From: Eledone cirrhosa
Taxonomy: Eukaryota
Reading direction: 5' to 3'
Assembly (NCBI GenBank): GCA_964016885.1
Contig: OZ024740.1
Location: 155,372,001 to 155,436,000 of the forward strand
DNA length: 64,000 bases
This document shows, in pieces, positions 11 through 45,124 of this stretch (position 1 is the first letter of the stretch; every line of letters begins with the position of its first letter). The notes below the pieces were generated by a model. That model was not told the DNA's origin and ran no database searches. It saw nothing but the letters and a program-made list of their open reading frames with translations. The position numbers and the translations under genes are program-made.

Positions 11-3000
11 TTAGGTAAGGCGGGTCTTCTCTGTTACTGAGTACCGCCAAAGGTCTCGGTCCAGTGACATTGTCTTGGAGAGGTGTAAGTGTGTGATGTC
101 GGAGTTTATCAGCTCGTCCCAGGTTTTTCTAGGTCTGCCTATTCCATGACTACCGTCTATCTTTATTGCCCTGCACTTTGTTATACAGCTATCGACTTTC
201 ATGCGCATCACGTGTCCATACCAACGTAGCCTTCTCTCGAGTAAACAACATCTGATCCCTCTTATCTCTAATTTTTTCCTTAGTTCGTTTATGCTTTGCC
301 GTTCACGTATATTACTGTTACACATCCAGCGGAGCATGCAAGCTTCGTTCCTCTCTAGTCTGCGTATATCCTCTGCACACAATGCCCATGTCTCACTGCC
401 ATGCAACATTGCTGTTCGTATGCAGGCATCGTACAACCTGCCTTTCATTTTTAGGGAGAACCCTTTAGCAGCTAATAGTGGTATAAGCTCTCTGAACTTT
501 TTCCAACCAGTTCTGACTCTAGCTACAGTACTTTCAGAGCACCCTCCCCCACTGCTGATTTTATCGCCCAGGTAACGGAAGCTGTCCACTATTTCTATAG
601 AACCCTCTGCGCAATTGAAAGAGCTAGTATTTTGTGGGCACTTGCTGCTACTTATTGCACCAGAACACCGGCCACATGTAAAATCTATGTTCTTAGTTAG
701 CTTACCTGTGATCCCACTACATCTTTTATGCACCCATACTTTGCATTTAGGACATAAAATGGAGTTTCTACCTACGCCTTTCCTACACACCGAGCACGAC
801 CATTTCCCAGAAGGGATCGCCGCCTTGTTTTCTTTCCTACAAACTAGAACTTTGGTCTTAGCCAGGTTAATTTTAAGTCCTTTTGACTCTAGGCCGTGCT
901 TCCATGTTTGGAATTTCTTCTCTAGCTCGGCCATTGATTCCGCTATGAGTGTCAGGTCGTCTGCGTATAGGAGTTCCCATGGGCAGCCTGTCTTGAACTC
1001 CTCTGTTATAGCCTGAAGGGCAATAATAAATAGTAGGGGGCTGAGAACAGAGCCCTGATGGACGCCAACTTTTACGCTAAACTCTTCACTATATTCGTTG
1101 TTAATTCTAACCTTGCTGACTGTTTCTTTATACATGGCTTGTATAGCCCTCACAAGCCATTCGTCAACGCCTAGTTTTCTAAGAGCCCTCCAGATAATGG
1201 AGTGGGGGACTCTGTCGAAGGCTTTCTCCAAGTCGACAAAAGCTAAGTAGAGGGGTTTACCTTTAGCTAGGTACTTCTCCTGTAGTCGTCGTACTATGAA
1301 AAGAGCGTCTGTGGTACTTTTGCCTGACACAAACCCGAACTGCATTTCATCTAGGTCAATTCTCTCTCTGATTAGTTGCGCTATTACTTTTTCCGTGACC
1401 TTCATGACCTGGTCGATTAATTTAATGCCTCTATAGTTACTCCTATCTAGGGCGTCTCCTTTACCCTTATAACAGTTAACGATGATGCTGCTATGCCAGT
1501 CCTTCGGAACAACCCCATTCTGTACGACTTGGTTAACTATGCAGGTGACCATGGTGTGTCCCACCGTGCCAGATGCCTTCAGCATCTCAGCAACTATTTC
1601 CGAAGGCCCAGCCGCCTTACCCGTCTTCATATCCTTGATTGCCTTACTTATTATACTCCCCTCGACTAACACTGCTGGTCCCTCTATTGGGTCGATATGG
1701 GGGAGACTGTCTTTCTCCCATTTATTCTCCTCATTTAGTAGCCTTTCATAGTGACACTTCCAAGCTACCTTCTTATCAGCGTCGGTGATGGCAAGTGTGC
1801 CATCGTCGTTTAGTACACACTTCTCCCCGACAATATCACGGTTTTCCTTGACGCATTGCCTAGCAATCCTGAACACCTCACGTTTTTGGTCATCGCGTTG
1901 TAGAACATGCTTGAACTTTCTTTCCTCAGCTTCCCTTCTTGCTAAGTACACTTGTCTCCTAGCTTCCCTCCTGGCCACTTGATAGTCTTCTCTACTTCCC
2001 CCATCCCGCCATACTTTCCAAGCCTGCTTTTTGGCCTTAATTGACCCCTCCACCTTACTGTTCCACCACCATGTTACTCTCCTCCTGCCTACAGGCCTGC
2101 TCCAGCCACAGACTTCGTCTGTCGCCAACAGCAGGTTTGCTTTCAGAAATTCCCACTCTCCCTCTATATTGTCCGACTGTAAATGTTCTTCCCTACTGTC
2201 GAAAGCATCAAGTAATATGCTTTGAAATTTATTCCTGGCTGTGGGGTCCTTTAGCTTCCATATTTTTCTCGTGAGGATAGTCCTCTTCTGCTGTCGAGTA
2301 CGTCTCGTCCTGACTATGAGGTCGCTAATTATCAGTCTATGTTGGGAGGTGTATTCTTCATGGGGGAGGGATTTAGTGTTTACAACAGACACTCTGTCAC
2401 GTCTTCTGGTAAGGATATAATCTACCTGGCTTGTGTGTTCCCCGGATCTATAGGTGATCAGGTGATTGTCACGTTTTTTGAAGTTAGTGTTACAGATAGT
2501 TAGGTTATTTGCATCACAGAATTCCAGGATTCTGGAGCTTTCCTCATTTCTAGTACCAAACCCATAGCCTCCATGGATTTCGTCGTAGCCGTCACAATGT
2601 TGTCCAACGTGACCATTTAGGTCGCCTGCAATAATTATATAGTCACTGTCGGATATTTGGGAGGTAGTTAGCATGAGTGTCTCATAGAATCTGTCTTTTA
2701 TAGTGCCGGGCAGTCCGGATTGGGGTGCGTACGCAGATATTACTGTCACCGTAGTTTTATTGAGGACAAGTCGTATTTTAATTATTCTGTCGTTCACTCT
2801 ATTTACGTCTATTATCTTATCTGCCCACTTTTCTGCTACCATGATTCCTACTCCACCCAGCCCATCGTCGTTTCCCACCCAGAAAAGCTTATAACATCGT
2901 TTTTTACCCTCAATGAACCTAGCAGACCCTCCCCTCCACCTGGTCTCTTGAATACAACAAACATCGACCTCCTTACGTTCAAGCATTTCTACAACCTCGT

Positions 3001-3280
3001 TAGCGCGACCCTTTAGGGTGCCTACATTTATGGTACCAACTCTGAAGTTTTGGATTGCGTTTGGGGGTTGGGGGCGGTGGGGGGCGGGGGGCGATGGGGT
3101 TATGTTAGCCGTCCGCGATCGAAACAATGAGGAGTGCTCGCATTCTCGTCCAAGAGGTGAATTTGTCTTTATCTTCGGCATTGTCGCTGAGCGTCCAGAT
3201 TTTTCTCTCTCTCTCCTCCACTCTCCAGGATTCCGCAGTCCATCCATCCATCCATCATATATCGAAAGACAACCAGGCAA
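11..3280 (-). CDS. RTE-clade non-LTR retrotransposon polyprotein: APE endonuclease + reverse transcriptase + PHD finger
   Basis: Uninterrupted 1089-aa ORF with APE motifs (GTINVGTL, CCIQETRW, YAPQ, GDLNGHVG, SQVDYIL, SQHRLI), RT motifs (YRGIKL, QFGF, FVDLEKAFDRV, GVHQGSVLSPLLF, YADD, FRYLG) and RTE-type C-terminus ([18 protein letters not shown]). The true start may be the downstream Met (MPKIK). Confidence 0.95.
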   Translation of the reverse strand: MPGCLSIYDGWMDGLRNPGEWRREREKSGRSATMPKIKTNSPLGRECEHSSLFRSRTANITPSPPAPHRPQPPNAIQNFRVGTINVGTLKGRANEVVEMLERKEVDVCCIQETRWRGGSARFIEGKKRCYKLFWVGNDDGLGGVGIMVAEKWADKIIDVNRVNDRIIKIRLVLNKTTVTVISAYAPQSGLPGTIKDRFYETLMLTTSQISDSDYIIIAGDLNGHVGQHCDGYDEIHGGYGFGTRNEESSRILEFCDANNLTICNTNFKKRDNHLITYRSGEHTSQVDYILTRRRDRVSVVNTKSLPHEEYTSQHRLIISDLIVRTRRTRQQKRTILTRKIWKLKDPTARNKFQSILLDAFDSREEHLQSDNIEGEWEFLKANLLLATDEVCGWSRPVGRRRVTWWWNSKVEGSIKAKKQAWKVWRDGGSREDYQVARREARRQVYLARREAEERKFKHVLQRDDQKREVFRIARQCVKENRDIVGEKCVLNDDGTLAITDADKKVAWKCHYERLLNEENKWEKDSLPHIDPIEGPAVLVEGSIISKAIKDMKTGKAAGPSEIVAEMLKASGTVGHTMVTCIVNQVVQNGVVPKDWHSSIIVNCYKGKGDALDRSNYRGIKLIDQVMKVTEKVIAQLIRERIDLDEMQFGFVSGKSTTDALFIVRRLQEKYLAKGKPLYLAFVDLEKAFDRVPHSIIWRALRKLGVDEWLVRAIQAMYKETVSKVRINNEYSEEFSVKVGVHQGSVLSPLLFIIALQAITEEFKTGCPWELLYADDLTLIAESMAELEKKFQTWKHGLESKGLKINLAKTKVLVCRKENKAAIPSGKWSCSVCRKGVGRNSILCPKCKVWVHKRCSGITGKLTKNIDFTCGRCSGAISSSKCPQNTSSFNCAEGSIEIVDSFRYLGDKISSGGGCSESTVARVRTGWKKFRELIPLLAAKGFSLKMKGRLYDACIRTAMLHGSETWALCAEDIRRLERNEACMLRWMCNSNIRERQSINELRKKLEIRGIRCCLLERRLRWYGHVMRMKVDSCITKCRAIKIDGSHGIGRPRKTWDELINSDITHLHLSKTMSLDRDLWRYSVTEKTRLT

Positions 3281-3764
3281 GCGATAGTATAGGCCTCTGG
3301 CTTCTGATTGGTCCGCGTAATAATACTGGTGATGCGTGGGGGCTCTGGCTTATGATTGGTCCACGTAATAGCAGTGGTGGTGGGCGGGAGAGAGGGGTGT
3401 TGGGTAGCTAGATAGGAGGTAATGATTGAATGGGGTCCTTGCACATTTAACAAGCGATTAACAAAAATACAAAATTTGTTCTGTTCAATACGACCAAAAG
3501 CTTTCGTATCTAACAATTAATGATAACAAAAAATGTAGATTGTTTTAGCGATAGATTGGCTATTTGGACTTGATACGAAATATGGATTGTTTTGAAAATA
3601 CGCTAGAATTAGGAATTGAGGAGGTAGAGATGAATACGCTAGAATTAGGAATTGAGGAATTAGGATTGTGGAGGTAGAGATGAAGGAAAATATGTACATT
3701 ACGTTACATGAATATCGTGGGGTAGACAGCAAAGCAATGAAATTTGGCGAAGTGAATTCCTATC

Positions 3765-5558: not shown

Positions 5559-5816
5559 CATACGTATATATACATATATATATATACATATATATATATA
5601 TATCGTTTCTGAATTTGTTTAGCAAGATTCTTTATCTGAAATCGTGTGTTGAAACCGATATTGTTATACTTTGGGAGGGTCATGTTGCCAATAAGAAACA
5701 CACGCACCAGTTGCTTTCACTTCAATTTATTATAAATTTATAAATTTACTAATCTACAAAACTTATAAATTTCTGGTTGGTTGGTTGGTTCCACAACCAG
5801 ATAGTTGTTTATATAT

Positions 5817-5861
5817 AGTCATAGTTCTTTCGTCACACACTCTGTGACCTCTTCAGTGACT
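5817..5861 (-). ncRNA. Minimal type I hammerhead ribozyme (PLE family H3)
   Basis: Reverse complement of the motif at 6055-6099. Confidence 0.72.
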
Positions 5862-6054
5862 GGGGATTCCTTTCTTTGTTCTGCCCTACGCCATTTTGTT
5901 TCTGTGTGTGTGTTGTGTGCTCAGTCTGCGCATGCGCCACATCCGGGTGTCTGTGTGTGTTTATGAACATAAACACACACAGACACCCGGACCTGGCGCA
6001 TGCGCAGACTGAGAAGAACAAAGGAGAGGCACAGAAACAAAGAAAGGAATCCCC

Positions 6055-6099
6055 AGTCACTGAAGAGGTCACAGAGTGTGTGACGAAAGAACTATGACT
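6055..6099 (+). ncRNA. Minimal type I hammerhead ribozyme (PLE family H3)
   Basis: AGUCA-CUGAAGA-g-GUCAC(agagugu)GUGAC-GAAA-G(aa)C-UA^-UGACU: stem I, core boxes, stem II, minimal stem III, CUA cleavage triplet. Confidence 0.75.
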
Positions 6100-6257
6100 A
6101 TATATAAACAACTATCTGGTTGTGGAACCAACCAACCAACCAGAAATTTATAAGTTTGTAGATTTGTAAATTTATAAATTTATAAATATATAATAAATTG
6201 AAGTGAAAGCAACTGGTGCGTGTGTTTCTTATTGGCAACCTGACCCTCCCAAAGTAT

Positions 6258-6328
<71 letters not shown>

Positions 6329-29577: not shown

Positions 29578-30245
29578 CACACACACATGTTCATATATAG
29601 AGAATGTGTATGTATATGTGACTGTGTATGTTTGTGTGCGTCTATGTGTGTGTAAAAGACCCTTGAATTGAAAAAAAATTACCATTACCTGAACAATGTA
29701 ACTGGTAGCAGAACAAAGGTGGATTCATTACATATCATTTTTTTTTGACAGATAAATCTATATTGATGTCCTTGTGTGGTACTATATAGATTTAGTTTCA
29801 GATGTCAGGGGATATAGAAAGATAGACTGCTAAATTGAGTCAGAGAAGAAAAAAGATAAAGAGGTAGATAGACAGTCAGAGGAGAAAAGAGAAAGACAAA
29901 TAGAGTTGTAGAAGAGATTGGATGGATAGATAGATAGGTAGGTAGCTAGATGGATAGATAGGTAGGTAGATAGATAGGTAGCTAGATGGATGGATAGATA
30001 GAGGGGTTGATAGATATGTTTCTTTATTAGCCACAAGGGCACAAAGGAAGGGGACAAATACAAAGGGGGAAGTTTACATACAATAAAAACGTTTAAAATG
30101 CTATCATAAATTTAATTTAAAAATTAATCGATTTTCCTCAATAGGGGGAGACATTTCATATGGGTAACACATACCCCCGAAAAAATGTGCAGCCCTGATC
30201 TCCAGGAGTACGAAGAGTTTGTACCCCTTTCCTCTCTTCCTCTAT

Positions 30246-33200
30246 CTACAGGCTGATACAGAGAGAAGGCCCATTCACTCGGACCATTCTCGCCACTTTC
30301 ACCCACCTTTCATAAAACTTGCTGGGGTACAGCACCTCTCTCTCCATCCTGATTCTTCTTCCAAAGTTGTATTTGAAAAAAAGAATCAGTTGTTGGCCGG
30401 GGAGAAAGTTGTCTGACCTCAGCCCTTTTAACCTCGTCCACCATACAACCTCTTTCGCCATAGCTATCACACAAAGGAAAACCACCTCTCCTTCGTTTTT
30501 GAAGGAGGGTGGCGGTTTGATCATGACAATGGACTCGGTGGTCAACCGGATTAGTCCCACCCGCGACAATAGTCGTTCTACATAGCTCCACAGGTCGGTA
30601 ACGCCCGGGCAGTGTAAGAATGCGTGCGCGACGGTTTCTTCGTCTCGCATGCACCTCGGACAGATCTTTTTCGAAGGGTTCCTGCCCGAGCGCCCATGTC
30701 TGTAGCGCTTGTCTCGAACCGGTAGAGCTCCTCGGTAGCACTGCCAGGCCAGGGACTTTTGGAAGTTGTCTATCGGTCCCGGGAGGAAGGTCCTACCGAA
30801 CAGACTGGCCAGTTCGTCTTCCTCTACGCCCAGAGTTTCACCGAGCACGTCGTCGCACTTGCTGCGGATCAACCCTCTATAGAATGACGAAGTGGAGTCT
30901 CCACTGATCGCCGGGTCCGCCTGCCAGAGGGCTGTGAACGCCTGAGCACATTCGATGTGCCAGTCGCCCATTTTCCTCGGTCTTTGCTTGACCCAGGACC
31001 GCAGCTCGGTCAGCGAGACGAGTCGTGGGAAGGCTCGCTTCACGAACGGGGCCCACACCGGTTGTCCGGTGAGGATTACGTAGAGATGCCGCAGCCTGAG
31101 CGCGTGTTTGCGCATTGTCAGCTACAGCATCACCAGCCCTCCGTTGGAAGCAGATGAATCTTCTCACCAAAGGAGCCGGCCTCTTCCAAAGGAATTGGAA
31201 GGGCGCGCGCTCCATTTTGGTCAGCGTTTTGGCTGCACGACGGTCAAGCGGTAATAGATAGCAAACGCTATAAAAGTGTTCGCCACCTGCGCTCGACCTT
31301 TCAAGGATAGTTTGCACTCGGCCCACTTCTGGGTGAGTGCAAACACCTTGGCCGTCACCTCGTTCCAGCTCTTCTCCACCTGGAGGTCCGGACCAAACCA
31401 GACTCCGAGCAGCTTTACCGGTTCTTCCGTCCAGCATCCGACGACGCCATCAGAAGGCATCGGTTTGCCTCTCCTCGATCCAAGTTGCAAACTGATGGAC
31501 TTGTCCTGGTTCAGCTTCGCTCCTGTGAACCTTTCGTATTCCTGCAGTAAGATTCCGACTTCCTCGATTTGCGAGGTGCTCGACACCATTACTGTCACGT
31601 CGTCGGCGTAGGCTGATGCCGCTTTCCGCAGTTCCGGTTCCGGAGGGATGCCCTGAAATAGCTCCAACTTCCATAGTAGTGACTCGAGAGTCAGTACGTA
31701 CAGCAGGGAGGAGAGAGAACATCCCTGTCGAATGGATCGCGTGATATGGAACGGCTCCGAGAGATAGCCATTCACCTTGACCCTTGAGCAGATGTTGCTG
31801 TTGTGCATTGCAGCAATCCAGCCCCTGAACGCAGGTCCGAAGCCTGCTGCCTCGAGCACCACATCCAGGTAATGATGGTCAACCCTATCGAAAGTCTTAG
31901 ACTGATCCAAGTTGATCAGGACCCCACCAAAGCAGGTTTTACACCATACGTTCTCTAAGATGTATCGCATGAGGTGGAGGTTGTCGTGTATGGACCTGGT
32001 CGGGATTGCGCATGTCTGTGCTTCTCCCACCAGGTTCTCTACGACAAGCGCCAGCTTCTTTGCCAACACCTTGGCCAAAATCTGTAACTCTGTGTTTAGC
32101 AGAGTTATGGGCCGGAAGTTGCCTATGTCATCCCCCTTATTCTCGTCCTTCCTGACTAGTGTGACTACGCCCCCGGTCACAGAACTGGGAATTCTCCCAT
32201 TCTGCTGCCAGTTGCAGTAGACCGCTTCCAGGAGACCGGACAATAAGTCCGGCATTGCTACGTAAAATTCGTAGAGTAGACTGTCGAGACCTGGAGATTT
32301 GCGTTTGCCGCATTGGCTCAGCGCGTCCCCTATCTCAGCAGCTGAAATCGGCTTTTCACAGAACTCCGCCTCGCCGTCCGATAGTCGCGGTAGGCCGTCG
32401 AGGTATGGACCAAAATCCATAGCCCCTCCCAGCGCACTGCCCTGCCCGAACAGTTGACCAAAGTGCCGCTGAAAGGCCACACACATCTGCTTCGGCTCAC
32501 GTATCACGTCTTGGTCTTTCAAAGACCGAATCGTGGACTTGTTGCCACTTTTTGCCTCCGTCACCCGGGCCCAGCTAACAGTTTTGGCTCCCTCATGATC
32601 CTTCAGATCACAAACTACTGACCTGCATAGAACCCATAGACAAGGTTGATAGAACCCATAGACAAGGACCTTGATAGAACCCATAGACAAGGACCCAGCT
32701 ACTAGAAGCTGAACTTGTCGTTACCGACATGCAAAGTCTACAGTAGACGGATTAGCACTTTAGTTAAACAGCACTTGACAGGGGCCATTGTCAACAACAG
32801 ATGGTGGTACTCTCTCAAGAGGGCAGTTAGATTAGACTCATTAGTTTTTAGTAAAGAATTAGCGTTAGATAGAAATAGGACCGAGAAGGAACTGGTAGAT
32901 AAAGTAGAAGAGACAATTAGAAGTGGCAACGCAGCCCTCGTGCTTTGCGTCGAAGAACTGGTCCAAGGCCGTTCTCGTTGCTAGCACGCTGGTTACGTTT
33001 CCACTTATAATTGCCTCTTTATCTACCAGTTCCTTCTTGGTCCTATTTCTATCTAATGCTAATTCTTTACCAAAAACTAATGAGTCTAATCTAACTGCCC
33101 TCTTGAGAGAGTACCACCATCTGTTGTTGACAATGGCCCCTGTCAAGTGCTGTTTAACTAAAGTGCTAATCCGTCTACTGTAGGCTTTGCATGTCGGTAA

Positions 33201-33866
33201 CGACAAGTTCAGCTTCCAGTAGCTGGGTCCTTGTCTATGGGTTCTATCAAAGTTGACCATGCAGGTCACTAGTTTGTGATCTGAATAGGCAACCATGAAC
33301 ATTTGTGGACAGCTTAACATGTCCCTATCCTTATTTCTAACTAGAACCCTATCTAGGTACGATCTAGATGTTCCGCTGCGATTAGTCCACGTCCACAGTG
33401 GCTCAGTCGGAAAATCCAGTCGATATCTATCGGCCAGGTCAAATCGGCCGATTAACTGTTTGAGGCTGTTACACACCCCTTTATCAGGACATGCCCCTAC
33501 ATAGTCCCAACGTGCATCTAGGATTCCATTCCAGTCCCCCACTAAAAGCAAGGAGCGGGACGTTCCCAGAAAAGTCTCTAGACGTTTGAAGAAGTCTGGT
33601 CGCGGTGTCCCGGATGGGGCATATGCGGCCACCAGCCTGAAGGCTCCACCTTCACTACCGTCATTGTTGAGGACCACCAGTCGACCCTCCGGGTCCAGAT
33701 GTACCGTCTGTGTTACGAGGCCCAGCTGTCGCTCGCTGCGGATCCTGAACTCGCAAATGGTTACTACATCCATACTGTGCGACCTGAGGTCATTTAAGAG
33801 TTTGCCCTGTTTCCAGGGCATCCCCTGGCCGCGTACATTCACACATCCAACTCTTATATTGGCCAT
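30246..33866 (-). pseudogene. Copy A ORF2 (APE endonuclease, RT, C-terminal zinc finger) with frameshifts, a deletion and an inverted duplication
   Basis: CVNVRG, AYAPS, VGDWNG, SYLDRVLV, YSDHKLV, YWKLN; KSPGLD, FRPITLLN, IRQGC.LS, AYADDVTV; CPRC...EETVAHAFLHC. Confidence 0.92.
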
Positions 33867-33873
33867 GTTGGTT

Positions 33874-33907
33874 CTGAAAAGTTAAAAGAAGAGAAGAAAA
33901 CACTCAC
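33874..33907 (-). promoter_or_regulatory. Splice donor plus branch/polypyrimidine/acceptor cassette between ORF1 stop and ORF2 start
   Basis: GAG|GTGAGTGTTTTCTTCTCTTCTTTTAACTTTTCAG|AACCAACATG. Confidence 0.55.
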
Positions 33908-35691
33908 CTCTTCGTCTTCCGGGGATCAGGCCGCACGATTTCCATGGGGGTGTTAGAGGGGTTGTCTGGGTGGGTGGTGGTTTCTGGCGGGGTGGGGATG
34001 GAGATGTTTGGTGGGGAGGTGGTGTCTGGGGTGAGGGTGGGGAGGCGGTGTCTGGGGTGAGGGTGGGGAAACTTTTTAAAAGGACGCGGTTAATGGGTTT
34101 AACACAAGGATACCCACGTCCTGAGGAAAGTTTTCCTTTAAAGACTTATAGGTGTCCGTAGGGACCCTAATCATCTTTAAATTAGGTTTGTCTACACAGT
34201 TCGAAAAAGTTTCCCCTTCGGTTTTCACCGAAGGGTCGTTGGAGATGACCTCCATTAAACTTTTATTTTTACTGTTTATGTATGTGTAATGTTCTTGTTG
34301 TGTTGCGGTGGTTTTTGTCTGTTGTTCTTGTGGGAGCTTTCGTTTTGTTGTAGGTGTTTGGAGTGATGTCGTGGTTTTGTTTTCGGGACGGGGGGTTTTT
34401 GTTTGTAATGTTTGTGTTGGTGGTTGTATGTTTGTAGTGATGTTTGTTGTTTTTTTGTTCTTGTGGTGTCTTTTCTTCTTTCTTTTCGAACGGAGAGGCT
34501 CTCCCTCATCATCACTTGGTGATGATGAGGGGGCCTCGCCCATTGTGGTGTCTGTGTTATTTGGAAGGGGTATGTTTTGGGGAGTTGTTGTGTCTGTGGG
34601 TGTTTTTCCAGTGGTTTTAGGTGGAGTGGGGTTGCAGGTTGGTTTGTTGTTTTTGTTTTGGTTATGTTTGCGTGTTGTTTTTGTTGTGGTGGTGGTGGAG
34701 GTTGTGTTGTTGTTTTGGGTGTTGGCAGTAGTGCCTCTTTTTTTTTTTTAAGTTAACTGAGGACAGTGACCACTGCTTAAACAGTGGTAACATGAAGGCC
34801 GCCTACCCTCAACAGAAATGTTTATGTGTGAAATTCCATCCAGAGGCACACGTTGGGGTATTTTAGCTATCCATTCTGGCCTCATTTGGACCAGAACTTC
34901 CATGCTTGTACTATTGAATGTGCCTCTGGAGGACTTTAACACCGAAATGATGGTGTCTTCATCGAAATCGATGAAGCCAGTTAAAATCCACCAGACGTTT
35001 ACATTTGGTGCAATGTTCAACATTTTTATCTTTTGTGTCCTTTTTCCCATATATGTGGGGAAAAAGGTGTAAAGGGGGGACACAATCGGCGATACAGAAT
35101 ATTTTTGTGCTGTCAATTGGTCTTTCAACAACACCGAAATGCTTCCAAAAAGTATTCCTTTTTGGATGAAGGCAATATCCTTCATGAAATTCTTCAGAAC
35201 CAGTTCAATGTCGTTTTGGGATAATTGAACTGGTTTTTTCGACACATTTGAAACCGTCCTAAAAATTACTGTTTTTAGAACAGTTTCTCTGCGTAACTGT
35301 TGAGAAGAAGTGATGCTGAAAAGTTACATACTGTTTTGCATCACTTAACATTTCCCTAGCATTGGAAATGTCAAGGTATGTGAACAGTTCCGTCTTTTGG
35401 ACGGTTTGAGCAAAGGAAATCTTTTCCTTGTTCATGGAGTTGTTGTTGGTGGTGTTGTTGTTATCATTGTTGCTATTGTTTTCTTGTTGTCATTATTGTT
35501 GTTGTTTATATCTTGCATGTTATTGGTGTTAGTGTTGATGTTACAATCAATGTCCGACATCTTGTTTTCAAAACTGACACATTTTCGATGTCTTTCAATG
35601 AGGTGGTGAGAGGAGGTGACTGCGAACTTAACACTCTTACCGCTTCTCCACCACTTCTAGTACTGAACGCAGCGTCTATGACTGAATCCAA
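33904..35691 (-). pseudogene. Copy A ORF1 (Tx1-type nucleic-acid-binding protein with zinc knuckle), frameshifted
   Basis: Homologous to 42264-43589 (FIQK..L.GS.S.L.KD, FFPTYMGK.TQ, VEGRRPSCY.C); reconstructed C-terminus ends MEIVRPDPRKTKR*. Confidence 0.8.
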
Positions 35692-35802
35692 GATTTATTT
35701 ACAATTTTTCCACCGATGAAATTTTTCAAATGAAAATTTCACCCCCAAGAAGGGGTGAAGATGACTTGACCCACCATCTGAAAGTTCAGACGTGGGGTCA
35801 AG

Positions 35803-35870
35803 CTATAAAATAGTATCAAATTTAACAATAAATTTTTGATTTCTTACTTAGAAAATCAGCAAAAACTTAC
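35803..35870 (-). promoter_or_regulatory. Putative 68-nt spliceosomal intron in the 5' UTR of copy A
   Basis: CTG|GTAAGTTTTT...GATACTATTTTATAG|C; positionally equivalent to the 67-nt segments in copies B and C. Confidence 0.65.
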
Positions 35871-35902
35871 CAGCAAACTGGCACACGTAGTGGATAGATA
35901 GA

Positions 35903-36003
35903 TTTCTATTTATTGCCACTAGGGCACAAAAGAAGGGGACAAATACAAGGGGGGAGTTTACACAAAAAGGCGAGTAAAGAAAACAAATAACAAATATAAA
36001 ATG
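35903..36003 (-). mobile_element. Short 3'-end stub of the Tx1-like family
   Basis: TTTCTATTTATTGCCACTAGGGCACAAAAGAAGGGGACAAATACAAGGGGGG matches the 3' terminus of copy A (30018-30080). Confidence 0.8.
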
Positions 36004-36173
36004 ATAGGTAGGTTGGTAGGTAGATGGGTGGGTAGATAGATGGATAGATAGGTAGGTAGGTAGAGATAGATAGATAGATAGGAAGGTAGAGATAGATAGA
36101 TAAGTAGGTAGGTAGATGGATAGATAGATAGGAAGGTAGAGATAGATAGGTAGGTAGGTAGATGGATAGATAT

Positions 36174-39100
36174 GTTTCTTTTATTTGCCATCAGGGCATC
36201 AAAAGTGGGACAAGTACAAAGGGGGGAGTTTACAAAACAAGGCGTCCTCAATAAGGAGGAGGCAATAACAAAATATAAAAATAAAATAAAATATAACAGA
36301 ATAAAATTTATAACAAAATCCTCAATAGAGAGGAGGCGCCTTGGGGGGTCGCACACACCCCCGAAAAAAGTGTGCAACCCTTTTCCTCAGGAGCACAGAG
36401 AAGGGGTTCTCCCTTGGTCTTTCATCTTCCTCACCTATAATCTGATGTAGAGTGAAGGCCCATTCACACGGGCCATTCTCGCCACTTTCACCCATCTTTC
36501 GTAAAAACGGCTGGGGTGCAGCACCTCTCTCTCCATCCTGATCCTTCTTCCGAAATGATATCGGAAGAAACGGACCAGTTGTTGGCCAGAGAGAAAGGTG
36601 TCTGACCTCAGTCCTTTCAGATGCGTCCACCATACAACCTCTTTCGCCATGGCTATTACGCACAGAAACACCGTCTCTCCTTCGTTTTTGAAGAGGGGAA
36701 GCGGCTTGATCGTTACAATAGACTCGGTGGTCAAACGGATCGGTCCCACCCTTGACAGCAGTTGTTCGACATAGCCCCACAGATCAGCAATGCCCGAGCA
36801 GTGTACCAATGCGTGTGCAACGGTTTCCTCGTCGCACACGCATCTGGGACAGATCTTTTTCGAGAGGTCCCTACCTGGGCGCCCGTGTCTGTAGAGCCTT
36901 TCTCGAACGGGCAGAGCCCTTCTGTAGCACTGCCAGGCCAGGGAACTCTGGAAGTTATCCATGGGTCCCGGGCTGAATGTCCTACCGAACAGGTTGGCCA
37001 GTTCGTCTTCCTCCATGCCTAGGGCTTCTCAGAGGGCGTCGTCGCACCTGCTAACCACCAGCCCTCTATAGAATGACGAGGTGGTTTCTCCACTGACAGT
37101 CGGGTCCGCCTGCCAGAGACCCGTGAGCGCCTGGGCACACTCGGTGTGCCAGGCGCCCAGTTTTCTCAGTCTTTGCTTGACCCAGGATTGCAGCTCGGTG
37201 AGTGAGACGAGTCTGGGAAAGGCTCGTCTCACAAACGGGGCCCACACCGGTTGACCGGAGAGGAATACTTGGAGGTGCCGTAGCCTTAATGCGTGTTTAC
37301 GGATCATTAGCCACGGCATCCCCAGCCCTCCTTTCGAAGGGTGTTGACAGCAGATGGATCTCCTCACCATAGGAGCCCGCTTCTTCCAAAGGAATTGGAA
37401 GAGTGCGCGCTCCATTTTGGCGAGCGTTTCCCTTGGGCAAGGCACAACGGTCAGGCGGTAGTAGATGACGGACGCTATATAAGTGTTCGCCACCTCCGCC
37501 CGACCTTTCAGGGACAGTTTGCACTCGGCCCACTTCTGGGTCAGTGCAAACACCCTGTTCGTTACCTCACCCCAGTTCTTCTCCACCTGGAGGTCTGGTC
37601 CGAACCAGACCCCGAGCAACTTCACCAGGCCCTCCGTCCAGCGCCCGACGACGGCATCGGAGGGCATCGATCTGCCCCTCCACGTGCCGAGTTGCAGACC
37701 GATCGACTTGTCCCGGTTCAGCTTAGCCCCTGTAAACCTTTCGTACTCCTCCAGTAAGGTGCCGATCACCCCGATTTCCGAGGCCGTAGGCACCATTACT
37801 GTTACGTCGTCGGTGTAGGCCGACACCGCTTTCCGCAATCCCGGTTCCAACGGGATGCCCTGCAACAACTCCAACTTCCGCAGCAGCTCTAGAGTCATTA
37901 CATACAGAAGGGAGGAAAGAGGGCACCCCTGTCGGATGGAATGCGCGATTTCGAACGGCTCCGAGAGGTAGCCGTTCACCTTGACCCTAGAGCAGATGCA
38001 GCTGCTGTGCATGGCATTGATCCAGCCCCTGAAAACGGGTCCGAAGCCTGCCGCCGCTAGCACCGCATCCAGGTAACCATGGTCGACCCTATCCAATGCC
38101 TTAGATTGATCCAAGTTGATCAGGGCCCCACCAAAGCCGGGTTCGTTCCCAACCCTCTCTATGATGTATCGCATGAGGTGGAGGTTGTCGTGGATGGACC
38201 TGGACGGGATAGCACATGTCTGCGCATCTCCCACCAGGTTGCCCACGACAAGCGCCAACCTCTTTGCTAGCACCTTGGCCAAAATCTGTAACTCTGTATT
38301 TAGCAGAGTTATGGGCCTGAAATTATTTATATCGTCCCCCTTGTTCTCGTCCTTCCTCACTAGCGTGACTACACCCTTGGTCACAGCACAGGGAATTCCC
38401 CCGTTCTGTTGCCAGTTGCAGTAGACCGCCTCGAGGAGATCGGGGAACAAGTCCGACATAGCTAGATATAGTTCGTATGGAAGACCATCGAGACCCGGGG
38501 ATTTGCGTTTGCCGCATTGGCTCAGCACGTCCTCTATCTCAGCAGCTGAAATCGGCTCCTCGCAGGACTTCGCCTCCCTGTCCGAGAGACGCGGCAGGCT
38601 GTCGAGGTATGGACCGAAGTCCACATCCCCAACCGGCTCCCTGCCCCTTCCGAACAATCCGGCAAAGTGTTTTTGAAAAGCCTCGCACATCTACTTAGGT
38701 TCAAGGATCAACCGTCCATCCTGGTCTCGCAAAGACCGGATAGTGGATCTGCTCCCTCTTTTGGCTTCTGTCACGCGGGCCCAGCTAACAGCTTTGGTCC
38801 CCTCATTTCCCAGAGCACGTATTTTGCTTCGGACGATGCAGCCTTCGTGTTTCACATTGAAGAACTGGCCCAGGGCCGTTCTCGACACTAGCACTCTGGC
38901 CACGTCGCCGCTTCTAATTGCCTCTTCTACACTATCTACCAACTCCCTTTCCTTCCTATTTCTATTTGAGGCTAACTCCTTACTAAATTCTATAGAGACT
39001 ACTCTAATCTCTCTTTTGAGAGATCCCCACCACCTGCTGTTGACGATGGCGCCCGTCAACCGCTCCTTAACTAAAGTGCTAATCCGGTCCCTGTAAGCCT

Positions 39101-40466
39101 TACTTGCCGGTAAAGACAAGTTGAGCTTCCAGTAACCAGGTCCCTGTCTATGAGTTCTGTCAAGGTTGACCATGCAGGTCACTAACTTGTGGTCTGAATA
39201 GCCAACCATGCGCATTTTTGGACAACTTAAAAAGTCCTTATCCTTAATTCTAACTAAGAATCTATCTAGGTACGACCTAGATGATCCGCTACGATTTGCC
39301 CAAGTCCAGGTTGAAAGTTTGATCATCCAGTATGACGCGTTCAGGGATCTGGGCGATCCTTTCGGGCCTCATTTGAACTACAAGTTCGAGGCTCGTTCCA
39401 CTGAACGCGTTACCCGATGTCTTTCCCATGGACACCAGTGTGTCATCATCCAAGTTCAGGAAACCTGTCAAAACCCACCATATGTCCATAATCGGCAGGA
39501 TGGTGTGGATTTTTATTTTTTGTGTTCTTCTACCCATGTACGTAGGGTAGAAGGTGTATGCGGTGGATGTGATTGGTTTGATGGACAGTTTCACTGCTGT
39601 GTCCCTGTCCTTCATGAGAATGGATAGACTCCCGTAGAGTCTATCCTTCTGAATGAAGGTGATGTCCTTCATGACGTCTTTTAAAACCAGCTCTATCTCA
39701 CTCTGTGATGGTTGAGCTGGTTTTTTGCTTTTATTTGAGATTGTCCTAAACATGACAGTGTTTAGGAGTCTCTGGCTTTTTAGTTCTGGGGGGGGGGGGG
39801 GGAATGGATCTTGAATGAACCATTTTCCCCGTACACTATATATTTTTTGGCATCTGCCAATAGCTCCTTCGCTTTGGTTATATCTACTGGCAGATAGTCG
39901 AGGGTTTTCCTTGCCGTCTGGGCGAAGGAGGCCCTTTCCCTGCTTGTGTTGCTGTTGTAGTTGGTGGTGTTGTTGCTATCATTGTTGTTGTTATCACAGT
40001 TATTGGTCTTGTTGTTGTTATTGTTATTGGTGTTGTTTTCGTCCATGGCATTGTTGTTGTTGTTGTTGCTGGTGCCTCTGGTTCTTTGGTTTGTTGCCAT
40101 GGCAACGTCAAGTTGTCAGTCAGCAAGTGGAGAAAATCCTTCCTCTGGCTGACCTTTGTTTTTGACCTCTGCTACTGTGACAGTGGCAGGGGGAAGCTGT
40201 AAGTTTATCTTCCCCTTTCCTCCTTCGAATTTTGGTGAAGAAGCTTCAGCCATTTTAAAAAATGTTAACTTTTCAACAAGAAAAAACTTTTTTTGTTTAA
40301 CTATTTCGCCTAAAGGCGTAGAATATTTTGAGAGACTGACCAGATCAAAGTTTGACCTGGCAGTCCCTCTACAAAATGGTACAAAAATTAAAGTTTACAA
40401 ACAAGAATTTCTATAGAAATTTAAACAGAACTTACTCAGCAAGTTATACGCTTGTGTCCATCCCAG
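36174..40466 (-). mobile_element. Tx1-like LINE copy B; internal deletion removes ORF1 C-terminus and endonuclease N-terminus (junction about 39313)
   Basis: ORF1 part 39313-40254 joins directly to TWTWANRSGSSRSYLDRFLV; ORF2 36435-39313 has stops and AYTDD. Confidence 0.92.
40369..40435 (-). promoter_or_regulatory. Putative 67-nt spliceosomal intron in the 5' UTR of copy B
   Basis: TGA|GTAAGTTCTG...CTTTAATTTTTGTACCATTTTGTAG|AG. Confidence 0.68.
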
Positions 40467-42263
40467 AGATATAGATAGGTAGATGGATAGATAGATAGGA
40501 AGGTAGAGACAGATAGATAGGTAGGTAGGTAGAGATAGATAGATAGATAGGAAGGTAGAGATAGATAGATAGGTAGGTAGGTAGATGGATAGATAGGAAG
40601 GTAGAGATAGATAGGTAGATAGGAAGGTAGAGACAGGTAGATAGGAAGGTAGAGACAGATAGATAGGTAGGTAGAGATAGATAGATAGGAAGGTAGAGAT
40701 AGATAGATAGGTAGGAAGGTAGAGATAGATAGATAGGAAGGTAGATAGATGGATAGGTAGGTAGAGAGATAGATAGATAGGTAGGTAGGTAGAGATAGAT
40801 AAATAGGAAGGTAGAGATAGATAGATAAGTAGGTAGGTAGATGGATAGATAGGAAGGTAGAGATAGATAGATAGGTAGGTAGGTAGGTAGAGATAGATAG
40901 ATATGTTTCTTTTATTTGCCATCAGGGCATCAAAAGTGGGACAAGTACAAAGCAGGGAGTTTACAAAACAAGGCGTCCTCAATAAGGAGGAAGCAATAAC
41001 AAAATATAAAAATAAAATAAAATATAACAAAAAATAAAATTTATAACAAAATCCTCAATAGAGAGGAGGCGCCTTGCGGGGTCGCCCCCCCCCCCCCGAA
41101 AAAAGTGTGCAAGCCTTCTCCTCAGGAGCACAGAGAGGGGGTGCTCCCTCGTTCCTTCCTCTTTTCCACCTACAGGCTTATGTAAAGAGAAAACCCATTC
41201 ACACGTGCGATTCTCGCCACTTTCACCCACCTTTCATAAAAACGACTGGGGTGGAGCACCTCTCTCTCCATCCTGATCCTTCTTCCGAAATGATATCGGA
41301 AGAAACGGACCAGTTGTTGGCCAGAGAGAAAGGTGTCTGACCTCAGTCCTTTCAGACGCGTCCACCATACAACCTCTTTCGCCATGGCTATTACGCACAG
41401 AAACACCGCCTCTCCTTCGTTTTTGAAGAGGGGAGGCGGCTTGATTGTTACAATAGACTCGGTGGTCAAACGGATCGGTCCCACCCTTGACAGCAGTTGT
41501 TCGACATGGCCCCACAGATCGGCTACGCCCGATCAGTGTACCAATGCGTGTGCAACGGTTTCCTCGTCGCACACGCATCTGGGACAGATCTTTTTGGCGG
41601 GGTCCCTACCCGGGCGCCGGTGTCTGTAGAGCTTTTCTCGAACGGGTAGAGCCCCTCAGTAGCATTGCCAGGCCAGGGACTTCTTGAAGTTGTCCATGGG
41701 TCCCGGGCTGAATGTCCTACCGAACAGGTTGGCCAGTTCGTCCTCCTCCATGTCTAGGGCTTCTCCGAGGGCGGCGTCGCACCTGCTGCGTACCAGCCCT
41801 CTATAGAATGTTGCGGTGGATTCGCCACTGACAACCGGATCTGCCTGCCAGAGGGCGGTGAGCGCCTGGGCACACTCAGTGTGCCAGGCGCCCAGGGGGG
41901 GGGGGATTTTTTAGGAGGGCGCGGTTGATTGGTTTGGCGCGGGGGGGGGGGGGGGGGGCACATCCTCCGTGAAATTTATTTTCAGTGTTTTATAAAAGTT
42001 CATTGGGACTTTAATCATTTTTAAATGAGGTAGTCCCACAGCAGTTATAAAGTTAGGCCCTTCAGTTTGGACCGAAGGGTTTGATGAAATTGTTTTCAGT
42101 AGTTCTTTGTTGTCTGTGTTCATGTATGTATATTGTAAAGTCTTTTTTTGTGTAGCAGTTAGTGTTGTGTGATGGGGAGGGGTGGTTTGTATATAGTTTG
42201 TGTTCTCTTGGGGAGGGTTAAAGTTAACAAGTGTGTCTGTGGTGCGCCTCCTCTTCTTTCTTT

Positions 42264-43384
42264 TTACTGTTTGGAAGGGATCTTTTTCGTCTTGCGACGA
42301 AAGGGGTTCGTCTTCTTTGTTGGGTGGGAGGGGTATGTTTTCTGGTAGTGTTTGCGGTGTGTGTGTTTTTGTATTTGTTTTGGGTGGGGAGGGGTTGGGT
42401 GGGACAGTATTCTGTGTTGTTTTTCACGTGTTTGTTGTTGTTGTGGTGGTGGTGGTGTTGTTGGTTTTTGTTGTTGTTGTGGTTGTTTTTGTTGTTGTTG
42501 TTGTTGGGGTGGTGTTGGTGTTGGTAGCAGTGTTGTTTTCTGTGTGAGCTGGGGACAGGCAGCCCTCAGGTTACCTCTATTGCCACAGAGGTAACAGGAG
42601 GGACGCCTACCCTCCACAATAATATTGAGGTGGGTACGGTCATCCAGCATGACGCGCTCAGGGATTTGGGCGATACGTTCTGACCTTATTTGTGTCAGAA
42701 CTTCGATACTCGTTCCACTGAACGCATCGCCAGATGCCTTCCCTATTGAAATGAGGTTGTCCTCGTCTAAATTGAGGAAACCGGTTAGTAACCACCAGTA
42801 GTTTATGTTTGGGGTGATGGTGGTTATCCATATTCTCTGGGTTTTTTTACCCATGTAGGTGGGGAAGAAGATGTAGTGTGTGGAACGAATTGGCGACACA
42901 GAGTATTTTTTCGCCGCCAATTCGTCTTTCATCAATATGGATAAACTCCCATAGAGTTTATCCTTTTGTATGAAAGTGATGTCTTTCATCGCTTCTTTCA
43001 GTACTAACTGAATTTCAGCTTGAGATGGTTGTGCTGGTTTTTTTGTTTTATTTAAAATTGTACGGAATACGACAGTTCGTAATTCCGTCTGTTTTTTTAG
43101 TTCTGGAGGTGAATTTATAGAAAACGAACCGTTTTCGCCAAAAGATAAATATTTTTTGGCTTTTTCCAGCATTTCTTTGGCTTTTGAAATATCTTCAAGC
43201 ACATAAGTGACTGATAATTTAGCCGTTTGTGCAAAAGATATTTTGTTTTCGTTGTTGGTGTTTGTATTGTTTTGTTTCTCATCGTTTGAGTTGTTTTCAT
43301 CTTTGTTGTTGTTGTCTTTCTCGTTTGGTGTGTGGATACTTGTGACGTTTGTGTTGTTGTTGTTTTTGTTATCTTTATTGTTGC

Positions 43385-43415
<31 letters not shown>

Positions 43416-43589
43416 TTCAGTTTCTTGTATAGTTGTGGCTACATCAAGTTGTCGGTCAACAGGTGAAGAAAATTCTTCCTCTGGCTGACCTCTGCCTTTG
43501 GCATCTGCTGCTGTGACAGTGGCAGGGGGAAGCTGTGAGTATGACTTCCCTTTTCTTTCTTTGAATGTTGGTGAAGATGCTTCAGCCAT
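42264..43589 (-). CDS. Copy C ORF1 protein (N-rich low-complexity N-terminus, conserved core, degenerate zinc knuckle CYLCGNRGNLRAAC); C-terminal part frameshifted, homology continues to about 41900
   Basis: Long ORF starting MAEASSP; homologous to ORF1 of copies A and B. Confidence 0.82.
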
Positions 43590-43721
43590 TTTTATCAAAA
43601 TATGATTTTTCGAAATTTTTCGAAATTTTTTGAAAGATAAAATTTTTACAACACTATTTCGCCTAAAGGCGTAGAATATTTTGAGAGACTGACCAGATCA
43701 AAATTTGACCTGGCAGTCTCT

Positions 43722-43788
43722 CTACAAAATGGTACAAAAATTAAAGTTTACAGTTCACAATTTCCAGATAAATTTAAACGAAACTTAC
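43722..43788 (-). promoter_or_regulatory. Putative 67-nt spliceosomal intron in the 5' UTR of copy C
   Basis: TCG|GTAAGTTTCG...CTTTAATTTTTGTACCATTTTGTAG|AG. Confidence 0.68.
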
Positions 43789-45124
43789 CGAGCGAGCTCA
43801 GCACATGTGTCTATCCCAAGACTGATAGATTAGAGACAGATAGATAGGTAGGTAGGTAGATGGATAGATAGATAGGAAGTTAGAGATAGAGAGATAGGAA
43901 GGTAGAGATAGATAGATAGATAGGTAGGTAGGTAGATGGATAGATAGATAGGAAGGTAGAGACAGATAGATAGATAGGTAGGTAGTTGGATAGATAGATA
44001 AATGGATGGATAGATAGATAGATAGGTAGGTAGGTAGATGGATAGATAGATAGGAAGGTAGAGACAGATAGATAGATAGGTAGGTAGTTGGATAGATAGA
44101 TAAATGGATGGATAGATAGATAGATAGGTAAATAGATGGATAGATAGAGGGAGACAGAAAGGAAGACAGAGTTTTCTCTTTATTCAGAGAACAGAAAAGA
44201 TTTAAAGTAATTCCAACTGTGCCAGATTAGGTAAATATAATTTGACAATATGAGTGAAAAACTGAAAAATGATTCAATGTGGAGGAAAGGTGATAGATAA
44301 GGATTAAAATATTTCAAAAAATGAATATAGGTTTTGAAAGGTCCACATATGATAAGCTTTTGTAAATAGAATAAAATAAAATGAGATATGTAGATTTTAT
44401 TTTCATTTAAAGATTTCAATGGTATTATAAGCATGACTTAGTGGTGATAGTGGTTATGGAAGCAGAGTGATAAAGAGAGTGAAAAGGCAAGACAGATAGA
44501 GAATGAGCATATGCAAATGATAGATAGGACTCTCTTTCTTTTGCAAACACACACACAAATACATGATCAATAAAAACGGATAAAAATCACAAACAATTAA
44601 ACTAGAATACTCAGTATATCATGTAGAGAGAGTACATTCATTTATTTAAAATCTAACTGTTACAGGTGTAATTCTGTTTCTGCCAGTTAAGTATCCATCA
44701 GCTGCTCTCTGAAGAATTCTCAACTGAAAGAAACAGAACTACTCCAATAAGAGTCACCTCTTAAATACATTAACATATGCACACACGTGGGATAAATGAA
44801 CAAACGCAGCCAAGCTCCTCATCAGCCACTACTCAGGCAATAGATTTTCTTGCATAAAAGTGGGATTGTATAATATTGAGCCCAAGTTGTATGATGGCTT
44901 GAGTAAACCACTGGAAAGATGTGTATGAGACAACACAACATCACTGTGACAGAAGAACGCAACAAAGTATTTTTCAACAAATAAGAATAGAAAGTCTTAC
45001 GACGGGAAACAGAACAGGATAGAGTATAGGCAATCAGACAAGTTGTGTAAAATCTAACACAGGAAGGAAGGAAATATATGTACATATATATGTGTGTGTG
45101 TGTGCATATATAAATATATATATA

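Follow-up and report, generated by a model that had tools for sequence, protein, structure and literature searches.

A putative U1-binding splice donor and an intron-like leader segment in L1/Tx1-type retrotransposons of Eledone cirrhosa

Introduction

Long interspersed nuclear elements (LINEs) are generally taken as intron-less because they are copied through RNA, and retained introns are regarded as a hallmark of Penelope-like elements. The stretch of Eledone cirrhosa DNA analysed here (64 kb of contig OZ024740.1, positions 155,372,001 to 155,436,000; hereafter the window) contains three tandem minus-strand retrotransposons without long terminal repeats (LTRs), named C, B and A, each lying within a (TCTA)n-type microsatellite. 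Close to the 5′ end of each of them, a short segment opens with GTAAGT and closes with TAG, raising the question of whether a LINE may keep an intron in its genomic copies, and what the element could gain from it. Our analyses suggest that this segment is the intron-shaped part of a structured leader, that its donor is likely selected as a binding site for the U1 small nuclear ribonucleoprotein (U1), and that it is likely spliced in a minority of the transcripts; judged from sequence, we consider this combined reading evenly poised between being right and being wrong. The unspliced RNA is the form found copied into the genome.

A previous sequence-only reading of this locus had proposed selection on the leader splice donor and retention of the intron-like segment in the copies, together with a scheme of splicing to an acceptor before the second open reading frame (ORF2). 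The former proposal is supported by the comparisons presented below, and the latter is not.

Results

Position and conservation of the leader segment

In copies C, B and A the segment occupies positions 43722..43788, 40369..40435 and 35803..35870 of the minus strand, with GTAAGT at 43788, 40435 and 35870 and TAG extending to 43722, 40369 and 35803, respectively. The lengths of 67, 67 and 68 nt and the coordinates are exactly those first described, and the three segments belong to the class I defined below. The segment lies within the element, since dispersed copies become homologous behind (TCTA)n repeats, at a point 31 nt upstream of the GT. In copy C these 31 nt of upstream leader (43789..43819, minus strand) end near a CGC motif; the leader of window copy A is shortened (about 20 nt).

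Further leaders were taken from tandem neighbours, and 12 leaders of subfamilies A to H were compared. Four of these subfamilies are large, with 1198 (D), 858 (E), 822 (F) and 937 (G) first-look candidates, and D2, F2, H, H2 and B2 are represented by one or two copies each. Class I leaders (A, B, B2, C, F, F2, H and H2) contain GTAA at about +32 and TAG at the base of a hairpin, 67–69 nt apart and both invariant in 8/8, whereas class II leaders (D, D2, E and G) are devoid of GT at +32. Hence, the segment is not carried by every genomic copy, as had been claimed, but donor and acceptor are kept at a distance of 67–69 nt in 8 of the 12 sampled leaders. Among best-hit copies, GTAAGT and TAG were each present in 28 of the 29 C copies located, a GT donor in 28/30 and TAG in 30/30 A copies, and the donor in 30/30 and TAG in 29/30 F copies; GT was absent at this site from D (25/25), E (25/25) and G (28/28 located, of 30), where the former acceptor reads TAA in E (25/25) and GTG or GTA in G (28/28). 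Since these copies were chosen by likeness to the query, which biases the sample, the counts reflect the family consensus and not selection.

Between the deep lineages A, C, F and H the interior of the segment is 44–57% identical, with 14 of its 58 columns invariant, whereas GTAAG and TAG do not vary at all. With columns treated as independent, the chance that GTAAG and AG would all be invariant is 0.24^7, about 5e-5. In addition, the 34 nt preceding the acceptor are free of AG in 4/4 deep lineages (shuffle probabilities 0.11–0.28 each). Class I leaders display a consensus donor, an AG acceptor with a T-rich tract and a workable length, as spliceosomal introns do; in class II it is only the donor that has independent support.

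Donor replacement in class II leaders

Class II leaders have not simply lost the donor. All four contain a consensus donor (GTAAGT, GTGAGT or GTAGGT) at one homologous place, 34–35 nt before the hairpin and about 32 nt downstream of the old site (about +65 versus +32), with identities of 37–56% in its flanks when D, E and G are compared. In class I a donor at this place is absent throughout (0/8), and at the family level the replacement was found in 24/25 D, 24/25 E and 27/28 G copies. A consensus donor word is thus present in 11 of the 12 leaders, H2 reading GTAATT. At the old site D and E retain AAGT without GT, and G is devoid of AAGT. The old AG has been kept in D and D2 and lost in E (TAA) and G (GTG), so that its loss is restricted to leaders in which the intron would measure 35 nt; the next AG lies 59–60 nt from the new donor in 4/4 class II leaders. 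An objection considered during the analysis, that D and E refute a splice role because they are without GT, was dropped once the replacement donor had been found.

Taken together, the conservation of the signals over a 44–57% identical interior, the AG-free zone in 4/4 lineages and the replacement donor after loss argue for a selected leader donor and an intron-like segment. The simplest explanation for a donor whose loss is followed by replacement, and whose variation stays inside the U1 consensus, is a selected U1 site, while an AG that is fixed at intron length and decays at 35 nt points to real use as an acceptor. On these grounds of signal conservation and donor turnover, the segment likely behaves as an intron.

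The trees of leader, ORF1 and ORF2 disagree: A and E group together by ORF2 but not by ORF1, C leaders are combined with either of two ORF1 types, and window copies C and B differ in ORF1 type. This conflict is, as read from the trees, module swapping between subfamilies A–H. A tandem array of units of about 950 bp was observed at locus L050 (G000:C1:211902100-211912099), with similar spacing at C1:212381784-212384721, and in each unit a C leader, its intron-like segment in full and 9 nt of hairpin 1 precede unrelated (TG)n-rich sequence. Loci L110 and L111 (minus strand, about 220-1) contain the same chimera, in which an E ORF1 is fused directly to a G leader without its first 30 nt or so.

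A second donor at the ORF1 stop

In 7/7 lineages examined (window copy A and loci L046, L137, L145, L355, L365 and L380), a 5′ splice site close to the consensus also overlaps the ORF1 stop, be it TAA, TGA or TAG. In copy A this donor, AG|GTGAGT, lies at 33902..33909 of the minus strand and is the best U1 match on the sense strand. The word is GTAAGT in B/C (17/17 ORF2 starts), GTGAGT in A (3/3) and E (9/9) and GTAGGT in D (6/6); F, G and H mostly keep it, apart from individual copies in which it has decayed, and in E it persists despite a register shift of 1 nt. It ranks as the best or second-best sense-strand U1 match in 12/12 copies scored, and GT[AG]AGT occurs on the sense strand of 12 full-length copies at the leader and the ORF1 stop only. 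No conserved acceptor was found between this donor and ORF2 in the seven lineages. In distant metagenome relatives (36 of 80 loci examined, most with about 22–29% ORF2 identity), a donor-like word touches the ORF1 stop in 2 of 33 with a crudely called ORF1.

Hairpins and a CGC motif around the segment

Two hairpins follow the segment on the minus strand. In copy C hairpin 1 (43683..43722) starts at the G of the acceptor AG and hairpin 2 lies at 43658..43676; copy B contains them within 40305..40369 (hairpin 1, 40369-40330; hairpin 2, 40323-40305) and copy A within 35738..35803 (35803-35764 and 35759-35738). The two-hairpin stretch gave fold z-scores of −6.7 in C (43650-43721) and −7.6 in A (35731-35802). 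Over the 12 leaders, 11 of the 22 hand-set pairs have changed on both sides, and 78% of the hairpin pairing cells are complementary, versus 66% in shuffled leaders and 36–57% in slid registers. As RNAalifold alone recovered the hairpins in part, the structure was set by hand, and the controls favour a structure derived from the same sequences; covarying hairpins are accordingly supported, not proven.

The CGC motif near the donor is invariant or nearly so in all 12 leaders. A TCGC motif just before the first donor site (alignment A2, columns 54-57 and 188-191 in the 12 leaders) is kept even after donor loss; the GCGA arm of hairpin 2 is its complement, and the motif might represent an alternative pairing or a promoter box.

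Observations that weigh against a leader intron

Several results count against the reading proposed here. As a U1 match the leader donor is moderate, ranking 4–6 among about 290 GT sites in A and C and falling outside the top 7 in D and E, and shuffling one such spacer yields a donor-like word by chance in 4–20% of cases. In 10 of the 12 leaders the acceptor's G is paired with the opposite end of hairpin 1, and in E, where this G has changed, a compensating change accompanies it, so that this G must be regarded as partly structural. The CAG that would serve as acceptor in class II belongs to a hairpin arm and has been retained in class I too, while D and D2 keep the old TAG. The distance of about 70 nt between the CGC motif and the hairpin likewise persists in class II, and the length of the segment alone is therefore not an intron signal. 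Finally, class II requires three changes on the ORF1 and ORF2 trees and is left unresolved by the leader tree; the donor may have shifted once, with module swapping spreading the change, or as many as three times.

The search for spliced genomic copies also speaks against splicing. A genome-wide search with the C junction pattern gave 0 matches, compared with 161 unspliced C-type leaders. Searches for C and A leader ends with a base other than G next to them, which miss acceptors that are followed by G, returned a single match apiece, and in both the segment was still present. The D pattern matched once, in a point mutant, and C/D ORF1 ends not followed by G gave 11 matches, all due to point changes or small indels. 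Among 305 collected element sequences, 63 donor-side ends without a following GT were found, none of them joined to a downstream AG. The genome-wide patterns covered the C, A and D junctions, those of B, E, F, G and H lying outside the search, and the exact patterns match 26/30 C, 17/30 A and 15/25 D copies. A result of 0/161 weakly bounds spliced templates at about 2%, a limit within which rates like those of the human SpIREs would fit; it excludes routine splicing of the copied RNA, leaving room for rare splicing. The sequence-only reading had named two findings that would together speak against it, unspliced expressed elements and a lack of precisely intron-less copies, and the second is what these searches returned. 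Two read sets of unrecorded kind, available as contigs and both compared with a C element, one of them also with an E element plus an A leader, were not used as evidence either way; no predicted intron appeared among the joints listed, and one contig of the latter set crosses the E leader unspliced.

The elements in the window and their identity

The three window copies are all damaged. Copy C (40903..43819, minus strand) retains the leader and ORF1 (ATG at 43589), joined at about 41895 to the final 1 kb or so of the element, most of ORF2 having been deleted internally. Copy B (36172..40466, minus strand) consists of the leader and a partial ORF1 (ATG at 40253), joined at 39313/39312 to an ORF2 without the N-terminus of the endonuclease. 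Copy A (30016..35888, minus strand) is near full-length, decayed and of a diverged subfamily, with ATA at 35679 as the ORF1 start; its ORF2 contains an inverted duplication of 237 nt, 97% identical (32668-32904, read as 32904-32668, and 33017-33253), and a short tandem repeat (32620-32695). Since their breakpoints are not at splice signals, the internal deletions of B and C were discarded as splice products. The (TCTA)n-type target microsatellite extends upstream of C (43834..44148), between C and B (40467..40903), between B and A (36005..36172, followed by a 3′-end fragment of about 100 nt from another copy, to 35902) and behind the 3′ end of A (29921..30016).

Intact relatives elsewhere in the 3.0-Gb genome measure about 5.7 kb, with an ORF1 of 570–640 codons and an ORF2 of about 1145 aa. 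The 1144-aa ORF2 of locus L046 matched Exo_endo_phos, RVT_1 and zf-RVT (the latter below the cut-off), and its best solved relative was human L1 ORF2p (E 3e-47). The apurinic/apyrimidinic (APE) endonuclease, reverse transcriptase (RT) and C-terminal zinc-binding region in ORF2, the separate upstream ORF1 and the absence of LTRs place the element in the L1 group. ORF1 showed a weak match to a zinc knuckle (E 0.24–0.29) and no protein relatives at E 0.001. Repeats of the (TCTA)n type adjoin most 5′ and 3′ ends, as estimated by eye without counting, in line with a Tx1-like target preference. The Tx1 label is a provisional one, resting on these traits together with a microsatellite preference like that of Kibi and Koshi.

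Most copies located through their 5′ end reach a 3′ end about 5.7 kb away, and many stand head to tail with other subfamilies inside one microsatellite. The window also contains an unrelated LINE (11-3349, minus strand), a single open frame of 1112 aa with APE, RT and a PHD finger behind the RT. At 5658-6265 a nested palindrome of about 600 nt lies between (AT)n tracts; its arms of 106, 122 and 46 nt are 94–100% identical, and it resembles a head-to-head pair of a short element.

Discussion

A possible mechanism

If the leader donor is a selected U1 site, U1 bound 30–70 nt from the start would allow an otherwise intron-less element to be transcribed and processed like a host mRNA, the benefit being relief from early termination or better export or translation, as proposed for Penelope. 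Where splicing occurs, class I transcripts would use the AG at the hairpin base (67–69 nt) and class II transcripts the AG that comes next, located within hairpin 1 in its 3′ arm (59–60 nt). Splicing would cost a copy its donor and part of what is likely an internal promoter, and would leave it a dead end, like the human SpIREs. If the leader splice were coupled to use of the ORF1-stop donor, the product would be without ORF2p in cis and would be rarely copied.

A more far-reaching proposal is that an entire radiation of L1/Tx1 LINEs depends on the host spliceosome. According to it, two signals would divide the RNA between a spliced message for ORF1 and an unspliced template guarded by the hairpin: a minimal intron in the leader, with a donor displaced by 32 nt in some subfamilies, and the donor at the ORF1 stop. 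In this way a LINE would retain an intron through target-primed reverse transcription as Penelope does. We put this forward tentatively and with more doubt than belief.

Alternative explanations

The alternative that survives best keeps U1 and dispenses with the intron: the donor would be maintained for U1 binding, which may prevent termination and protect from premature polyadenylation, while the AG and the T-rich tract would be kept for the hairpin and the promoter. The donor word is indeed nearly universal among the leaders (11/12), whereas the AG at the hairpin base is not, the searches made gave no spliced genomic copy, and the ORF1-stop donor is likewise without a conserved acceptor nearby. 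Moreover, effects of a 5′ splice site or an intron that are independent of splicing appear in passages of two reports, both on mammals (PMC12211998, PMC8770142); in the first of them, mammalian cells show a protection from Restrictor by a 5′ splice site that does not depend on splicing, and the presence of such a system in this host is assumed. What speaks against this explanation is the TAG, which is invariant and has its AG-free zone exactly in the class where donor and AG stand one intron length apart, and which has decayed in 2 of the 3 other lineages. We consider it rather unlikely, although to be taken seriously.

It is improbable, to a higher degree, that GTAAG and the T-rich tract are factor-binding sites of an internal promoter for RNA polymerase II which look like splice signals by coincidence. 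Their position at +32 from the 5′ end and the adjacent CGC motif, conserved in 12/12 leaders at a fixed distance to the hairpin, would suit a promoter, as would the AAGT kept without GT in D and E. A further point in favour of this alternative, and one that weakens the case for splicing, is the precedent of human L1, where a RUNX3 site has been invoked in the sections consulted of PMC5860796. A promoter motif would not be expected, however, to be replaced by words that vary only within the 5′ splice-site consensus (GTAAGT, GTGAGT, GTAGGT), nor should the same set of words recur at the ORF1 stop, 2 kb from the promoter; besides, G, a large family with 937 first-look candidates, has lost AAGT altogether.

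The retrovirus-like scheme of the sequence-only reading, in which one leader donor is spliced alternatively to ORF1 and ORF2 acceptors to yield separate ORF1 and ORF2 mRNAs, now appears very improbable. Its support comes from A and E, where a pyrimidine tract ends in CAG 7 nt before the ORF2 ATG (33874..33901 for the proposed acceptor of copy A, minus strand, with the ATG at 33866). These sister lineages by ORF2 are the only ones with an AG between ORF1 and the ORF2 ATG (2/7 lineages), while in B/C (17/17 ORF2 starts), D, F, G and H the pyrimidine tract before ORF2 is without AG. Furthermore, no A leader joined to the ORF2 CAG was found in the genome, though an RNA of that form would supply ORF2p in cis and its copying would be expected. 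What resembled a 13-codon mini-ORF ahead of ORF2 proved to be the C-terminus of ORF1 in intact D and E copies. Chance combined with common descent in an AT-rich leader is the least credible explanation, for although a single leader would show a donor-like word with a probability of 4–20% and the leaders are homologous, the signal columns are invariant over a 44–57% identical interior and the donor shift is correlated.

Comparison with known systems

Spliced subgenomic RNAs are a feature of retroviral and Copia-type elements. The possible division into an unspliced template and a spliced mRNA would be shared with them, unlike the lack of a conserved ORF2 acceptor, of LTRs and of env in the present element.

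Similar in organisation are the microsatellite-targeting LINEs of the Tx1 clade, such as Kibi and Koshi, inserted in (TC)n and (TTC)n, respectively (passages of PMC4494074). These elements and the L1-Tx1 families of Octopus vulgaris have the same two ORFs, APE and RT, insertion into microsatellites and clustering in tandem (PMC4494074 and PMC13282606, in part), differing in the (TC)n and (TTC)n targets of Kibi and Koshi versus (TCTA)n here. The passages of PMC4494074 contain no description of an intron for Kibi or Koshi, and neither 'intron' nor 'splic' gave a match in the main text of PMC13282606.

In human L1, the sections of PMC5860796 on splicing report a conserved 5′ untranslated region (UTR) donor, G98U99, that is rarely spliced and whose conservation is put down to a RUNX3 site; introns of 500–900 nt with several acceptors; SpIREs amounting to 116 of 6609 full-length copies, about 2%; and the cis preference of L1. 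A conserved 5′ UTR donor in an L1-group LINE, an RNA that would stay mostly unspliced and spliced copies that would be dead ends have a counterpart there (PMC5860796, same sections), although in the present element the unit is minimal (59–69 nt), tied to a hairpin and without a spliced copy in the searches made. Such a conserved LINE intron had been presented as a candidate for an undescribed system. As far as splicing in the 5′ UTR is concerned there is a precedent in the human SpIREs (PMC5860796, as above), but a literature search that did not extend to most subscription papers and Repbase reports turned up no conserved leader intron described for Tx1 or other LINEs.

The nearest parallel is found outside the LINEs. 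Penelope of Drosophila virilis has, according to the relevant passages of PMC2377424 and PMC8557442, a 75-nt 5′ UTR intron located 46 nt from the start, which is spliced in most transcripts and yet retained in the copies. A short intron tens of bases after the start, retained in copies, is what the present leader segment would share with Penelope and Chlamys-3_cRei, and the Penelope intron resembles it further in overlapping an internal promoter and in having splice sites conserved across diverged elements (same passages). The elements themselves are different: Penelope-like elements have a GIY-YIG endonuclease, a telomerase-related RT and pseudo-LTRs, whereas the element described here, with its APE, L1-like RT and two ORFs, is not Penelope-like. 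Splicing of the former was demonstrated by reverse-transcription polymerase chain reaction or Iso-Seq (PMC2377424, PMC8557442, in the parts consulted), whereas here it is predicted from the sequence, and in the latter the donor has moved in some subfamilies, unlike in Penelope-like elements. If a large and recently active family of LINEs does carry a donor that is both selected and movable, this would show that LINEs can exploit U1 or a retained intron in order to be taken for host mRNA. The two leader classes, with the donor at +32 or about +65, would then constitute a natural experiment on why retroelements keep introns and how spliced RNA stays out of the copying pathway, in a segment that, by analogy, appears to work most like the 5′ UTR intron of Penelope.

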